Below are positions 1-6,000 of a stretch of 64,000 nt of DNA, one piece after another. The position numbers were made by a program. Location of the stretch: contig NZ_MWQY01000004.1 in assembly GCF_002087085.1 (NCBI RefSeq), forward strand, positions 1 through 64,000, given 5' to 3'. Position 1 is the stretch's first letter. Each line of letters starts with the position of its first letter.

Positions 1-3000
1 ATAACATCCAATTGAGCTGTGTGGCGTTAAGCTGGCATGTGTTTGTGCTGCAACTCTTATACATTCTACTACGATTTCTACCCGGAATCACATGAAATAT
101 TCAGTCACCTGGTTTACCTACTGCACAAACCATGACAGTAGCCACATCTGCTCCAATTGCTGGTTATGTTCTACATCACATCCTATAATTTTTTCCATTC
201 AGCAAACTTTTCCCGTGGATCATTGCTTAGCGCATAAACTTTTACACCTTTAAACTGTTTTAATTGGTGATGATCTAATGGGATATCTGAAAAATAGTTT
301 AAATAAAGATCCAGCATGTTATTTTCTTTAAGTATACCTACTGCACTTATGTAAGTTCCATGGTTTTCTGTGAGTCGTCTATCAGAACCAAATCGTTTTA
401 TTATGTTCCCAGTTTTATCAAGAGTTCGGTGTTCGATACCATACATTCCTGTTTTTATTTCATATTCGCTTAGAATACTAACTTGAGAGGAACGATTATC
501 GTGGATGATGATAATTGATGGATATTTATTTGCACAATATTTCCTTAACTGAACGCTGCCTTCCTTTATCTTTTGACGAATTCTATTCCCAGGTTTTGAA
601 TTCCCCCAGACTGCAAAGTCATTTTCAGATAATTCATTTATTGCACTTTTCTCATCTGGATTTGTCTCTAGATCTTTTATCTCAATGTATATCAAATTAT
701 CATTCAAATATATTAAAAAGTCAGGAGACTTATCTTTTCCTTCAACTATTCTTTCATATCGAATATTTAAAATCGAGCATAAGTTAATGAATTCATACTC
801 TCCATTAGTCATTTTCTTTTTAATTTCTCTAATCTTTCAATTAATTGATTTGGTTTTTTACCTGGTGAATGTCTTTGCTTTGAAAATCTTTCTAGAATCT
901 CAATTTCTTTGTCGATCATTTTTTGCTTCTTAAATACCGTTGCTAATTTTTCATAATACCAAGGTGCCACACCAAATTTCTCTATTTTATCTTCAGATTC
1001 AGTTGCTTCAACTAAATTCCATAGTAGCTTCTCCGCATCGTCAAGTCTATTTTCAGCGATCATTTGTTTTACATCATCTGCATATTCAGTGTAATGTTTC
1101 CCTTTAAAAATACCCGGCTTTTTCATTTAACCATCCTATAATTCATAATTTTAATCAAATTTATTTTGTATGAACATAACATCCAATTGAGCTGTGTGGC
1201 GTTAAGCTGGCATGTGTTTGTGCTGCAACTCTTATACATTCTACTACGATTTCTACCCGGAATAACCTGAAATATTCAGTCACCTGGTTTACCTACTGCT
1301 CAAACCATGACAGTAGCCACATCTGCTCCAATTGCTGGTTATATTGCCCTCTCTTCCTTCAGCAGCCTGAACGACTTAATGATCTCATCCTTCTCAAATA
1401 GCTGATTTGTAATGTATTTATGAAGCACCGTTGTAATAAGCGTTTGGTACGGTAACCCTTCCTGTTCTGCCTTCTCTTTTAGTTTTTCTAAATCATAATT
1501 TGAAATTCTTAGGCTTATCGCCTTATTTTTCTTGGCTCCAGCTATTATGGATTCGACCTTCTTTCTCTTTTCACCTGTGACGGATCGATAGGTGTCAATT
1601 TCATTTTCTATTTTCTTCTCTTCAGCAGTAAGGTTATATCTTCGTTTCATATCATTTCCTTCGATATTTCTTGTGGTATTTTCGACTCTGATAGGCAGTC
1701 TTCAATACGATATTATCATCCTCATCTATTATGAATGGGACAATCCACGTATAGTCTTGTATTTCCATCACAAAATACATCTGCCCCTCACGTACTGGAT
1801 TCTCAATAATATCCATGTACATTCCATCCATAATCATCTGACTTATTTCATCAAAAGAGATATTTCTCTCTAAAATGAGTTTTTCATTTTTTTCTTTATC
1901 CCAGATGATGGAATTCATATCTAATAATACTTTATCGTATATACATTGTCAACCTTATTCAAACACACATGCAACGTCTTTATACATCGAAAACAGCTAT
2001 GCAGGTGCTTTTTAATACTCAGAATCATACAGCGTCTTTACACCATTTTTACCTGGTTGAAGGTGTTAAATTCTTATTCTTCTTTTCAATATGCATTTTT
2101 TTAAGATGTATCGTTTCAAGTTATCACATCTGTGATTCATCAACACCGTTAACCGGCCTTCTTCAATTCTTCTTTTTATTTCTCTAAGTGTAAGCATTGT
2201 TCCTGTGCATTTGTCTTTGATGTCCCTAACTTCTTCCCTGGGTCAATATAACACCCAGTTGAGCTGCAAACCGTTAAGCTGGCGCAGTTTGTGCCTCAAT
2301 CGTAAACAGTATAACTCCACTTATAATCAAGAACAATCGAAAACTATTGTTCCCCATTTTCACGAGCCTGCACAAACTGTGACAGTAGGTTTGTCTGCTC
2401 CAACTGCAGGTTATACTGCGCTGATCCCCCAGGCAGAAGAACCATTTTTCGAACCATGAGGAGAATTTCCATCGAACACCGAAAAATAGTCTCAAAGGAA
2501 AAGTGCGTTTGGCCGTAGCGTGGCCATTAATTGCGTTGGGTTGCGTGCAGGCCTTTGCGTGGCTGCGTGGCCAGGCGTTGGCCAGCGATAGGCCTTAGTG
2601 TAATCTCGATAAACTTTCGTTATCGAATTCCCTCTTCCTTTCCTTCTTCGAAGTCCCCAAAAAAGTGTCTGTATAACATATTCTACCCACTACTTTTGTC
2701 CTATTTTAACCTCTTATCATCTGAATGCGCAATTATTTTACAAAAACGGCGTTCAAAGTAAAAGCATTCAACATTAGCTATGGTTTTAAACAATAGAAAC
2801 TATTGTTCTCCGGAGGTCAATATCAATGGACCAGGAAGTGTACGGTCGATACATTAATTATCTCCAGAAATATCATAAGATAAAAGAGAATCACCTTTCC
2901 TGGTACCTCCATTGGGTAAAGAAATATATCAACTATTGGAATAACGATAAGAACTACCTCAAGGACGACTCAATCCGGAGATATTTTCAATTCCTTGCAG

Positions 3001-6000
3001 ACCGGTATGAACCATGGCAGGTAGAGCAGGCTGCCGCGGCGATTCGTCTTTTTGTTCATTACATGAACAAAATGGAAAATAGCGCAAAACTACAGAAACC
3101 GGGGAATTGGCCGGAGGTTCTGGATAAGATGAAGTCTGAGCTCAGGGTGCAGAGCAAGTCGTATAGAACAGAGAAAACCTACCTCTACTGGGTCCGCGAT
3201 TTTTCCCGATGGCGCAACCCTAAAAACCCGGATCAACTTGGATCTGACGATGTCCGCGCTTACCTCACCCATCTTTCAATCAACCGTAACATATCCTTTG
3301 CAACTCAGAAACAGGCTTTTATCGCTTTACTGTTTTTATTCCGTCATGTTTTAAATATAGAGATAAATGGCCTCGAATCAGTGGTCCGAGCCAGAGTAAA
3401 TAGAAAACTCCCTGTCGTTCTTTCTCCATCCGAGATATCAGGGATCTTACAATATGTGCCTGAAGAATACCGTCTGATGTGCCGCATTATCTATGGGGGC
3501 GGACTTCGACTTTCAGAATGTCTGGAATTAAGAGTAAAAGATGTCGATATCGACGGCGGATCAATCATTATCCGTTCTGGTAAAGGTAATAAAGATCGCC
3601 TGACCTTACTCTCACGGTCGGTGATTCCGGATTTACAGAAGCACATTGTAAAAGTCAGACAGTTATACGAGTCTGATCGCCTTGAAAAATTGCCAGGTGT
3701 ACCTCTGCCTTTTGCATTGCAAAAGAAGTACCCTCAGGCATCTACGGAATGGAACTGGTTCTGGATCTTCCCTTCCCCCCGGTTTTCGGTGTGTCCGCGG
3801 ACCAATCAGCCAGGCAGGTTCCATGTGTTTCCATCAACTCTGCAGCACGCCTTTCATGAAGCGCTGAGAAAATCCGGAATCCCAAAGAAAGCAGGCATCC
3901 ATACCCTGCGACATAGTTTTGCGACACACCTGATAGAGGCAGGTTATGATATAAGAACAGTACAGGAACTGCTCGGCCATTCGAACCTAAGTACAACAAT
4001 GATCTATACCCACGTAGCCACAAAGAATAAGCTCAGTGTAATCAGTCCCATGGACAAAATGGACATCTGACCTTTGAATAGAAGAATCACCCTTGACCTA
4101 TTGGAGCCTCAGGGAAAAGCTCGCCAGAACTTTAATCTTTCAGCTATCCTGCTCAATATAAAAGCATTGTTCCCCATTTATTGACCAGAACAATGCGGGG
4201 CTATTGTTCTGCCATTCCGTTTACACGTACTCGGCCAGCGGCAGGGAAACAAAGAAAACTGTTTCTCCCGGTTTTGACTCTACCCAGATTTTCCCCTGGG
4301 ATGATTCTATGATCCTCCTGCAGATATCGAGGCCAAGGCCCATTCCCTGCATAGTGTTTTTGGTAGTAAAGAAGGGTTCAAATATCCGATCCTGGATTTC
4401 AGGAGGTATTCCGGGGCCGTTGTCTTTAACCGAGATAATCCCCCGGCCGTCCTGCTCCTGTGTCGTGATTACGATTTCGCCGGAACCATTCAACACCTGA
4501 ACAGCATTTCGTATCAGGTTCATCCAGACATTGGATAAGGTATCCGCCCTGGCTTGAACAAGCAGTCCGGAGAACTCTGTTTTGACGCTGATTCCGTGTT
4601 TCAGCAGGTTATGCATAAGGGTCAGCACCTTTTTTATATCCGTTTCCACATCGATTATCTTTGTTGTATCGAAAACAGTTGTTGTAAGGTATGACCGGAG
4701 CGCTTCGATAACATTCGACGCTTTTGCAGAAGATTCTGTAATAACCTCGATCATCCGTCTGATTATTACCGTATCCGAAACCTCCGCCAGGATTTCCCGA
4801 TTCCTGTTTATTGCAAGGTACGGTAAAAGATCATCGAGTTTGTTCAACAGCCCCATATCAGCAAGGCATGCGGTAACTTCAGGACTGTTTGGAATGTTCT
4901 GCTGTTCCAGCAGAGCCTCGATTTCTTTCGTCTCCCGCCGGGAGGGAAGATAAATATCCAGCGTTTTATTGCTTTCTAAACCCAGAACAACAGTTTTCGT
5001 GTATAAGTTCTGTTCCTGATCGGACAGGGAAGAGAAAAAGGCCGGCTGTTCAGGGAGCTTTTTGTCAAATGAATTGACCATCGATGAGACGGCGGATTGT
5101 ATCGCTCCCAGCGGTGTGTTCAGTTCATGGGCTATACCGGCGGAAAGCTGTCCCAGAGCGGAAAGTTTCCCGGATTCAATGAGCCGTTCCTGCATGCGCC
5201 GTAATTCAACGAGAGAGTCTTCCAGTTCCGCCGTCCGCTCGGCAACCCGTTGTTCAAGGGATACATTTATCTCCACCAGTTCGGCATTTTTTCCCTGGAT
5301 TCTTCTGGTCATTTCATTCAGCAGGTTTATTATTGCATCTATATCTTCGTAATCCGTCTCGGGGATCGTATACGCATAGTTTCCGGCTCCGATTTCGCTG
5401 ATTCCCTCGGATAATGCTGAAAAGACCCTTTGTGTCCGCTTTTGAATAAGCACCCGTGTGGCGATTAAATACACTGTCAAAATCGCGATTACCGCAACAA
5501 CCATGGCAAACAGAAAACGCTTGATTGTTAACAGCAGCTCGTTATCACTGAACTGCAGTTCTATTGTTCCGAGAAAAAAATCGTTATAGTTGACTTCTCT
5601 GATCCGCGGCTTGATCCATCGGGACTGGACTGGGGCCGGCTTGTTTACAACAATTCCTGTTGCAGAGGTATCAATAACGATACCGGAGATCCGACCGGAA
5701 GAAAGCAGTGCATCGGCAATCCTGCTAATCTGGCTGTCGTCCACATTATACAGGGGTTCGGTCAGGATATAGACTGTTTCGTCCGCTGCATTTTCTGCTT
5801 TGTTATTCAAATCGAGGATAATAAAGACGGATATGGCAAAAATAGAAACAATCTGAACAATAAATATGGTACCTATTGATATGACAAGAGAAAGAACCTG
5901 GGTTCCTTCTATAAGCCTTTTCGCCGGGTTTTTACCAGCCATTTTCTATTGATTCCCTTCAGCGACAAAAGACCTGACCATTTTTTCAAAAATCCCCTGT

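Follow-up and report, generated by a model that had tools for sequence, protein, structure and literature searches.

A chromosomal integron with integrase, attI core and long attC sites in a Marispirochaeta-like spirochaete

The window analysed here comprises the first 64,000 nucleotides of contig NZ_MWQY01000004.1 (C34) of assembly GCF_002087085.1, so that window and contig positions coincide; G000 denotes the genome under study and G001 to G005 its congeners. Near the left end of the window, an integron integrase gene, intI, is encoded on the plus strand at 2826-4070 (414 aa) and is preceded by a GGAGG ribosome site. The score given in the initial annotation was reproduced, with TIGR02249 matched over the full model at 403.7 bits (cut-off 265; intI residues 98-412 on model positions 1-315 of 315). 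The Vibrio cholerae integrase VchIntIA (2A3V) aligns with E=1.3e-72 over the whole catalytic part, including the IntI-specific insertion ALQKKYPQASTEWNWFWIFP, and the catalytic set R-K-H-R-H-Y is complete (R228, K253, H359, R362, H385 and Y394, by aligned columns). The VchIntIA residues touching the bulged bases of attC, as named in PMC3053210, include K209, Y210, W219, P232 and H241, which correspond to K301, Y302, W311, P324 and H333 here. Most of the contacts listed there are thus kept; H240 is replaced by F, and the positions of Q145 and W157 are occupied by K and R, as in IntI1. The integrase is about 97 residues longer at the N-terminus than VchIntIA and contains an additional N-terminal SAM-like domain at residues ~16-80.

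The attI site, which the initial annotation had not located, is now placed 130-150 nt upstream of the intI start, with its core, ATAAC / ATATTCTACCCACTACTTTTG, on the plus strand at 2674-2699. This placement comes from a comparison of six genomes, in all of which ATAAC and C..CTTTT (CCACT..TTTT) are invariant and the cassette to the left varies. Cassette homology ends at about 2679, at attI, and one contig of sequencing run X12 diverges into unlike sequence left of 2673; the predicted crossover point falls inside ATAAC. The spacer between attI and intI (2679-2825) contains promoter-like hexamers pointing towards the array, with three minus-strand sites within 2826-2680, although the number of promoter-like sites in the region is not above chance (12 found vs 12.3 +/- 4.0 in shuffles). 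A palindrome at 2788-2808 stands immediately ahead of GGAGG, and a second copy of it (GAACAAT-N8-ATTGTTC) lies downstream of intI at 4188-4209, as it likewise does in G004, so that the palindrome brackets the gene.

To the left of attI, as described in the initial annotation, low-GC cassettes are read on the minus strand and separated by attC sites (GC 0.28-0.40 across 1-2250 vs 0.53 for the whole genome of 4.22 Mb). Cassette 1 (2415-2678, minus strand) is ORF-less, has a higher GC content (~0.47) and is rich in GGCC/GCGTGGCC. It has four copies in the genome, and together with its attC it is 97% identical to C75:196117-196553; it has no Rfam match, and a search for covariation in it found none. 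Its attC is of the long form and the CAAACC subtype (2248-2414, plus strand, 173.5 bits with a covariance model), carries GAACAAT-N8-ATTGTTC in its centre and, as the site nearest to intI, is 412 nt away from it. Cassette 2 (1343-2247, minus strand) encodes a BrnT-like toxin (1652-1918), a BrnA/CopG-type antitoxin (1339-1650) and a 43-aa ORF (2066-2197), with Pfam matches to PF12441 at 31.8 bits (cut-off 28) and to PF04365 at 27.1 bits, which is under the cut-off of 34.5. A promoter-like site, TTGACA-17-TATTAT (11/12), is found at 1952-1924, and the cassette is covered by contigs of four runs. The antitoxin ORF (1339-1650) ends in a TAA stop that falls within the ATAAC/GTTAT box of the adjoining long-form attC (1176-1342, plus strand, GTGGC subtype, 173.2 bits). 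Cassette 3 (168-1175, minus strand) holds two overlapping ORFs, 809-1126 (105 aa) and 183-812 (209 aa), neither with an above-threshold family in Pfam, NCBIfam or PADLOC. The long-form attC belonging to it (1-167, plus strand, the recombining bottom strand) begins at the first base of the contig, scores 176.1 bits over the full model and is 98% identical to 1176-1345.

Throughout the genome, an independent nhmmer profile built from ten attC copies gave 23 matches, the same number as before, all on contigs C9, C24, C34, C41, C46, C58 and C75. A covariance model built from these same sites returned 24 matches at E<=1, namely 15 complete sites, six weak opposite-strand echoes of attC sites (27-35 bits), one IS-truncated site at C9:3-167 and two unrelated 62-nt hairpins on C40. 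The earlier estimate of at least 15 complete copies on seven contigs is therefore matched by 15 on the same contigs, all on one strand, 12 of them 166-170 nt long (157-176 bits on this strand vs 24-37 bits on the other) and three of 97 nt (115-120 bits), with a mean column identity of 77%. The lengths of 163-166 and 93 nt reported initially agree with these and differ only in the placement of the ends. The description of the sites as unusually long is justified for the 166-170-nt form, as 12 of the 15 complete sites lie outside the usually quoted 57-141 bp (PMC5027507), a range that is descriptive and not mandatory, while the 97-nt form is ordinary. The excess is due to the long central part, a common trait in chromosomal integrons (PMC5027507); centres of 20-100 nt are reported in PMC4889954.

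The ends of the sites read ATAAC...GTTAT. Contrary to the initial annotation, in which no GTTRRRY core could be read, the core is legible: AAC/GTT is invariant in 12/12 aligned sites, and the coding-strand end is GTTATRY in nine of ten sites and GTTACAA in one, so that the box departs from RYYYAAC/GTTRRRY at a single complementary position. DNA folds place next to this box a 3x3 unpaired spacer, followed by a bulged C and, five bases further in, a bulged T or A. Both bulges are on the 3' arm opposite AAC, the arm on which extrahelical bases are required in bottom-strand attC (PMC5027507). Like the departure in the box, the spacer of 3 nt (usually 5-6 nt) and the box-proximal C with its spacing of 5 (usually G and 6; PMC5027507) count against the integron reading. 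C bulges and other spacings do occur in natural attC, with an efficiency that depends on the integrase (PMC3053210).

With DNA parameters, 14 complete attC were folded, and in 12 of them the bottom strand gives a more stable fold than the top strand. The -38 to -47 kcal/mol initially stated for the hairpins hold with RNA parameters (consensus -43.6) but become -20.8 to -30.2 with those for DNA in these 14 sites. Over the 37 consensus pairs, bases match in 98.9% of cells vs 92.1% in shuffles and 26-44% with the partner slid, compensatory changes are seen in nine of the 37, and the covariation score of 0.265 (vs 0.134) was reached by none of 500 shuffles. The arms are conserved in sequence over ~48 nt in two co-varying versions, and the exchange of YGTGGC/GCCACR for CAAACC/GGTTTG that had been noticed earlier is confirmed.

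The cassette contents listed initially are borne out by Pfam and PADLOC. Across the seven contigs there are about 19 cassettes, the part linked to intI being a share of this total. Their cargo includes two PIN toxins with an antitoxin beside each, a Gp49/HigB-like protein with an HTH protein, SoFic (396.8 bits), a D12 methylase (415.9 bits) with an HNH nuclease, an NsnA/GmrSD-like protein (232.4 bits) with a RiboL-PSP-HEPN protein, a further HEPN protein and an AriA/OLD-like ATPase. Going by these matches, several cassettes are phage-defence genes. The gene-less gap at C75:195061-197151 is explained by four attC sites, as proposed; two cassettes without an ORF lie there too, along with three short ORFs that had not been called (56, 97 and 52 aa).

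Among 61 genomes (G000 and 60 relatives, mostly of its class), intI exceeds the cut-off in 18, G000 counted, and in all five congeners. The attC model matches 14, 39, 25, 1 and 36 times in the congeners, some weak opposite-strand echoes being counted in. In G001, G002 and G005 the sites lie beside intI and on its strand, and in G003 and G004 some are found on the contig of intI. Cassette turnover is indicated as well: from 7.35 kb of the C75 array, nothing recurs in congeners beyond the attC sites, the ORF-less cassette and, at 75% identity, the SoFic cassette. The ORF-less cassette has ten copies among G000, G002 and G004 and, with the palindrome in its attC, adjoins attI in three species, while the attI-adjoining cassette differs in G001, G003 and G005. 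In sequencing runs, intI is covered by contigs of four runs from four studies, and run contigs diverge into unlike sequence at 1343/1344, 2414, 1170-1177 and 2246.

The initial annotation described a single array of more than 20 kb, which is not borne out by the three intI-side ends that were found (C34 with intI, C9 and C24) and which imply that two or more of the pieces are integrase-less clusters. C9 and C24 both end without an integrase, in agreement with the earlier suspicion of integrase-less pieces, and their separateness as loci hinges on contig order. No fewer than four events involving IS elements map within or at the array. At C9:1-55 an IS end cuts an attC, at C41:448-1296 an IS30-like gene separates a cassette from its attC, C57 is an IS contig found at the end of C41, and IS3-like fragments are present at both outer ends. 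C46 is seemingly present twice. The assembly, whose breaks the initial annotation put down to the array, is broken here because of both the IS elements and the near-identical attC copies, as seen from k=55 overlaps inside the copies and from the multi-copy IS contigs C51 and C57.

Taken together, in this Marispirochaeta-like spirochaete a sedentary chromosomal integron very probably has its platform end at the left end of the window. The integron reading of the initial annotation is upheld by an integrase with the IntI-specific insertion, attC sites on the expected strand and side, cassettes read away from intI, and an attI placed by comparison; the presence and correct arrangement of all defining parts visible in sequence are supported. 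The contig carrying intI is 219.5 kb long, in keeping with a chromosomal locus, and since five of five congeners share this intI and this attC family, the integron is of the sedentary type, being chromosomal, common to related species, homogeneous in attC and rich in cassettes. As far as sequence can tell, the gene-capture platform is ordinary but complete, with a recombinase, a docking site and genus-wide long hairpin sites.

In the sequence, the cassettes are stacked leftwards of attI in minus-strand reading, each terminated by an attC of the one genus-wide family. By analogy with IntI1 and VchIntIA, excision and insertion of cassettes by IntI are predicted, for which the changes of cassette content exactly at attC and attI borders, between genomes and between runs, speak indirectly. 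The plus strand of an attC would fold into a 5-bp ATAAC/GTTAT box, the 3x3 unpaired spacer, a twice-bulged stem and a variable centre, and IntI would bind through the bulged bases and cut within AAC. Recombination between two attC would release a cassette as a circle and recombination of attC with attI would put it back beside intI, where a promoter in the spacer would read into the array. The array is probably kept stable by those toxin-antitoxin cassettes that bring their own promoters. IS insertions and rearrangements have divided it, leaving one part linked to intI and two or more clusters that lack an integrase.

Two other explanations have to be weighed. The platform could look intact while IntI-driven movement is over, strain differences then arising from IS elements and from homologous recombination between attC, which copies of up to 98% identity would permit. 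The IS-related events in or at the array and the same ORF-less cassette next to attI in three species would fit such a fossil. It is nevertheless very unlikely, as G000 has an intact intI that encodes every catalytic residue, the family model finds the gene free of internal stops in all five congeners, cassette copies retain exact attC-to-attC borders, and the variation next to attI (G001, G003, G005 and the X12 contig) breaks at the ATAAC core and not at random. Hardly credible is a chance neighbourhood, in which the repeats beside intI would belong to a family of palindromic intergenic repeats or miniature transposons that has no relation to the recombinase. Arm conservation over ~48 nt does go well past what IntI is known to read, and an unrelated repeat region on C40 contains a 62-nt hairpin that shares the inner motif. 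Against this, every one of the 15 complete sites belongs to a gene array that is co-oriented, low in GC and read on one strand, on seven contigs in all, and such arrays abut intI on the same strand in three more genomes. The AAC/GTT ends, asymmetric bulges and stop codons within the box are features of attC, and the ATAAC core also marks the attI junction in six of six genomes.

A bolder extension of the integron reading, which is unlikely, is that in this lineage recognition extends over more of the site than in classical integrons, the extra domain or a host regulator binding the extended stem or the palindrome, so that intI expression or site choice would be tied to the array. Such an added layer is suggested by the ~48-nt arms, the second N-terminal SAM-like DNA-binding domain, the palindrome-bearing cassette next to attI and the palindrome bracketing intI. 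If true, recognition would exceed structure alone.

The sedentary integron described here resembles the V. cholerae superintegron, the archetype with its VCR attC, in being chromosomal and genus-wide, in its homogeneous attC with a long branched centre, in its toxin-antitoxin and defence cassettes and in an intI divergent from the array. It differs in the spirochaete host, in attC of 166-170 or 97 nt with a 3-nt spacer and a C in place of G as the box-near bulge, and in an array that is far smaller and cut by IS elements. Treponema falls in the "inverted integrase" group, and the divergent orientation of intI here contrasts with that arrangement. The integrons of T. denticola and T. succinifaciens, as described in PMC3607928, are from the same phylum and likewise chromosomal with species-specific cassettes. 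In that account, T. succinifaciens has short attC of 63-68 bp alongside long ones of 132 bp; the present genome also mixes two lengths, with longer sites. The same text names Treponema as the sole spirochaete clade with known integrons in 2013, a picture to be compared with 18 of 61 genomes here.

Class 1 mobile integrons (attCaadA7, attCdfrA1) share the architecture of box, spacer, bulge and centre, and the bulged bases of attCdfrA1 are naturally A and C (PMC3053210). Unlike these, the present integron is not borne by a transposon or plasmid, its attC are ~2-3 times longer and nearly uniform, and no resistance genes were seen among its cassettes. CALIN, defined in PMC4889954 as attC clusters without an integrase, are a counterpart of the C9 and C24 pieces, which run into ordinary chromosome without intI or attI, one of them beginning at an IS, as described in the same paper for integrons split by IS; C24 has one complete attC where the definition asks for two, and the status of the pieces as separate loci hinges on contig order.

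Toxin-antitoxin and defence cassettes in chromosomal integrons have been published before (bioRxiv 10.1101/2024.07.02.601686); the cargo here agrees with such integrons and is not new in kind. In the library searched, no paper combines "Marispirochaeta" and "integron". The locus adds a well-delimited chromosomal integron, with integrase, attI core, attC family and cassettes defined, from a genus of marine spirochaetes that has been little studied. Marine and sediment metagenomes can be searched for cassettes with the attC model and the attI core. The attC family widens the known length range, and as natural sites with a C bulge, a spacing of 5 and a short spacer, its members are a substrate for probing the tolerance of integron integrases.

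The genome to which C34, the contig whose first 64 kb form the window, belongs (4.22 Mb in 79 contigs, 53% GC) encodes a 414-aa ORF at window 2826-4070 (+), and its initial annotation as an integron integrase is borne out: the protein, IntI, scores 403.7 bits against the NCBIfam model TIGR02249 (cut-off 265), residues 98-412 matching positions 1-315 of 315, and Pfam finds both the catalytic and the N-terminal SAM-like domain. The best match among solved structures is the Vibrio cholerae integron integrase 2A3V (E=1.3e-72, residues 111-411 aligned). Integron integrases are set apart from Xer recombinases by an insertion, and the IntI-specific insertion ALQKKYPQASTEWNWFWIFP is covered by the 2A3V alignment, as are the catalytic residues R228, K253, H359, R362, H385 and Y394, all of them in aligned columns. 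Among the VchIntIA residues that the accessible text of PMC3053210 lists as holding two extrahelical bases, K209, Y210, W219, P232 and H241 are kept, whereas Q145 and W157 are K and R, as in IntI1 according to that text, and H240 is F.

An extra N-terminal domain resembles SAM_4 below the cut-off (23.5 bits against 27, residues 16-80). The domain is not peculiar to this genome: by hand count, the alignment begins at or before query residue 30 for 49 of the 150 integrase cluster representatives that match best. This weak second SAM-like domain (IntI residues 1-100, window 2826-3125) is also present in relatives from other families of the class (L010, L011); other relatives (L007-L009) have an N-terminal extension of another kind. 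A second recombinase (C4:1928-2749, 273 aa) is 33% identical to IntI and has a counterpart in each of the five congeners, G001 to G005; its matches to the IntI model are limited to positions 1-179 and 240-314, so the IntI-specific insertion is missing from it.

GC content drops to 0.28-0.40 on the left of intI, where the sizeable ORFs all lie on the minus strand and one repeat occurs in three copies (window 1-167, 1176-1342 and 2248-2414). This repeat family had been described initially, and its nhmmer profile does give 23 matches genome-wide on seven contigs. A covariance model resolves 15 complete attC sites, the hairpin recombination sites that close each cassette, of which 12 are long (166-170 nt) and 3 short (97 nt), plus one truncated by an IS; the opposite strand gives weak echoes only. 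On the plus strand each site opens with ATAAC and closes with GTTAT. The initial annotation could read no GTTRRRY core, which is true of the canonical form only: read along the coding strand, 9 of 10 sites have GTTATRY at their cassette-side end and the tenth has GTTACAA. GTTATRY departs from GTTRRRY at a single position, and the other box shows the complementary change.

Folded with DNA parameters, all complete sites share one architecture. A 5-bp box is followed by three unpaired bases per side, a 6-bp helix of CAATTG (or CAGTTG/CAACTG) and a bulged C; inward of this come three pairs, a T·T mismatch, one pair and a bulged T or A, then a long imperfect stem and a centre which is either variable (~78 nt, long form) or an 8-bp hairpin (short form). 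The arm opposite the AAC triplet, which is the 3' arm of the plus strand, carries both bulges, at roughly positions 17 and 23 if counting starts where a 7-nt box ends; the accessible part of PMC5027507 quotes 16 and 23-24 and says that bulges on this arm identify the bottom strand, the one that recombines. The plus strand in that role agrees with cassettes read on the minus strand and with intI to their right. Of 14 complete sites, 12 fold more stably as the plus strand than as the minus strand.

Covariation between the arms, remarked on before, is confirmed by compensatory changes in 9 of 37 consensus pairs across the 12 long sites, including the six-pair block that turns the GTGGC subtype into CAAACC. 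Paired cells make up 98.9% in the stem, 92.1% in shuffles and 26-44% with partners slid, the slid-partner controls being the fairer test of pairing. The covariation score (0.265 against 0.134) was reached by 0 of 500 shuffles, a count that is not a probability because the sequences are related. The attC stem is supported by this covariation. With its filters off, the covariance model finds no degenerate attC at the outer ends (C75 left of 192375, C9 right of 2676, C24 right of 132). Inspection by eye shows some 20 nt of the 3' end of an attC near C75:190925-190945, joined to an IS3-like fragment, and C41 retains a 31-nt ATAAC...GTTAT remnant after its HXXEE cassette. The inner attC motif AATTGAGCTGCGT...ACGTCTGCTCCAATT also occurs, without the AAC/GTT box, in two 62-nt hairpins (C40:311-372 and C40:3735-3796) inside 213-nt repeats, in a region with RHS/YD-repeat-like ORFs that is found on C36, C39, C43 and C48 as well.

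The docking site attI, which had not been located initially, can be placed by comparing this genome with its five congeners. C34:2242-2678 (437 nt), an attC plus an ORF-less cassette of 264 nt, has a 97% copy at C75:196117-196553, an 88% copy at C75:196547-196978 and a fourth copy on C41. On C75 each copy of the cassette runs up to the ATAAC of the next attC; on C34 the ATAAC after the cassette gives way to unique sequence up to intI, and the similarity therefore stops at ~2679. All six genomes have ATAAC followed by a CCACT..TTTT motif 130-190 nt before intI; a blastn search with the attI region of this genome returned no match in G001, G003 and G005, where the counterpart loci were seen on reading and alignment. 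The cassette beside attI is the ORF-less element in this genome, G002 and G004, a 325-aa ORF in G001, a 309-aa ORF in G003 and a BrnT/BrnA-like pair in G005, and one contig of the sequencing run X12 departs into unlike sequence just before 2673. A shared ATAAC with differing cassettes, together with the X12 contig, places the attI crossover within ATAAC at window 2674-2678.

The ORF-less cassette (window 2415-2678, C75:196290-196553, C75:196729-196977, C41:50-310) is GC-richer and full of GGCC/GCGTGGCC motifs; in G002 the attI-side copy is only 72% identical and another 90%. A structured RNA was considered and rejected, as compensatory changes occur in only 2 of 48 predicted pairs and the covariation term speaks against it. 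Rfam gave no match at E<=1 for window 1-4300 and six array loci, and the start codons of the cassette's small frames are not conserved. In three species it is the cassette beside attI.

The palindrome GAACAAT-N8-ATTGTTC has only nine loose matches in the genome: four in centres of CAAACC-subtype attC sites (one at window 2331-2352), two around intI (window 2788-2808, just before the ribosome site, and 4188-4209), two in a low-GC region with an RHH and PIN pair (C32:420 and C32:3018) and a weaker one on C4. Exact copies in G002 and G004 are confined to CAAACC-type attC sites and, in G004, a position downstream of intI. The palindrome, which brackets intI and recurs in the attC of the ORF-less cassette, is a candidate operator. 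SOS control of intI through LexA was not retained: lexA (C65:146190-146786, 187.8 bits) lies behind another gene with no recognisable LexA box there, so that the organism's LexA motif is not derivable from it and the palindrome before intI stays no more than a candidate operator. In a promoter scan the number of promoter-like sites was not above chance, and no terminator-like site was found. TTGACA-17-TATTAT at window 1924-1952 (-), 11/12 consensus, stands directly upstream of the BrnT-like gene, and the BrnT/BrnA cassette thus seems to carry its own promoter.

About 19 cassettes, roughly 21-24 kb in total, are spread over the seven contigs. C34 holds, besides the ORF-less cassette, the BrnT-like gene with a BrnA/CopG-type partner behind the near-consensus promoter, and a gene pair of 105 and 209 aa overlapping by 4 nt (window 183-1126, -) without a Pfam, NCBIfam or PADLOC family. 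C58 encodes 239 aa without family; C46 a MazE/AbrB-type and PIN pair and 392 aa without family; C41 the ORF-less cassette, parted from its attC by an IS30-like gene, a FitA-like RHH and PIN pair and an HXXEE protein. On C75 there are an AAA_15 ATPase; a 139-aa, HTH_3 and Gp49/HigB-like set; SoFic (396.8 bits); three small ORFs including a zinc ribbon; two ORF-less cassettes; and 335 aa without family. C9 contributes a D12 methylase (MTase_II, 415.9 bits) with an HNH nuclease and a HEPN protein, and C24 a GmrSD_N/NsnA-like protein (232.4 bits) with RiboL-PSP-HEPN. The C75 ATPase had been called GajA/OLD-like; its best PADLOC rows are AriA (98.3 bits), Old (87.8) and GajA (60.9), and the GajA subtype is not upheld, the protein having 433 aa, AAA_15 only and no nuclease partner in its cassette.

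The array had been held responsible for the assembly breaks, and contig ends indeed share overlaps of exactly 55 nt that lie within attC copies. From C46(-), reached from both C75(+) and C41(-), one path goes through C58(+) to C34(+) with intI and the other to C24(+). The start of C9 (C9:1-55) is the end of the four-copy IS contig C51, which cuts an attC, and C41 runs out in another IS contig, C57. The IS30-like transposase gene occupies C41:448-1296, and IS3-like gene fragments, 84% identical and in opposite orientation relative to the arrays, lie at both outer ends (C41:3130-3296, C75:190697-190863). A second, integrase-less array had been offered as the alternative to a single one, and the C24 and C9 pieces do continue into ordinary chromosome, with neither intI nor attI. 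From the contig joins and IS breaks there is therefore one intI-linked array, with at least two pieces (C24, C9) outside it. IS-split integrons and integrase-less clusters are common according to the accessible text of PMC4889954.

Among named proteins the closest is an 'integron integrase [Marispirochaeta aestuarii]', with 97% identity over the part searched, the N-terminal region, and a related-locus search of genome contigs gave one locus only, in a Spirochaetaceae metagenome genome with an IntI copy 91% identical. IntI exceeds the cut-off in all five other genus genomes and in 18 of the 61 genomes searched, this one included. The attC model has 14, 39, 25, 1 and 36 matches in the five congeners, some being weak opposite-strand echoes. 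In the better-assembled ones the array lies beside intI on the same strand: in G002 from 1,691,767 to 1,749,660 (-) with intI at 1,690,119-1,691,063 (-), in G001 at 331,332-350,753 (+) with intI from 352,213 (+), and in G005 at C3:3,508-26,817 (+) with intI from C3:28,113 (+); all three have further clusters and single sites elsewhere. Cassette content varies from genome to genome: at E<=1e-10 the congeners match 7.35 kb of the C75 array only in its attC sites, in the SoFic cassette (75% identity) and in the ORF-less one. Four runs, each from a different study, have contigs over intI and the BrnT/BrnA cassette; these contigs turn into unlike sequence at the attC borders 1343/1344, 2414, 1170-1177 and 2246. 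Cover over window bins 281-1120 is nil or nearly so in the four runs, which counts as no evidence. Joints at attC borders (e.g. 169 to 1174, 168 to 2248) were rejected as excision products: they lie in repeats, and their sides measure 22-37 letters with 90% likeness.

Compared with the textbook attC, the sites are longer (166-170 nt against a quoted 57-141 bp), have a 3-nt spacer and a bulge spacing of 5, both unlike the textbook site, and have C where the textbook site has G at the bulge near the box. These differences are matters of degree. A and C bulges, as well as other spacings, do occur in natural sites, and integrases differ in tolerance (PMC3053210, accessible text), Treponema integrons have attC sites up to 132 bp (PMC3607928, accessible text), and a Spirochaetes attC model was built in PMC8352920; defence cassettes in chromosomal integrons are likewise published, as far as the accessible part of bioRxiv 10.1101/2024.07.02.601686 goes. 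In the library searched, no paper names both 'Marispirochaeta' and 'integron'. Integrons in Spirochaetes are already known, and the present system, judged from its sequence, belongs among the sedentary chromosomal integrons and would work like them.
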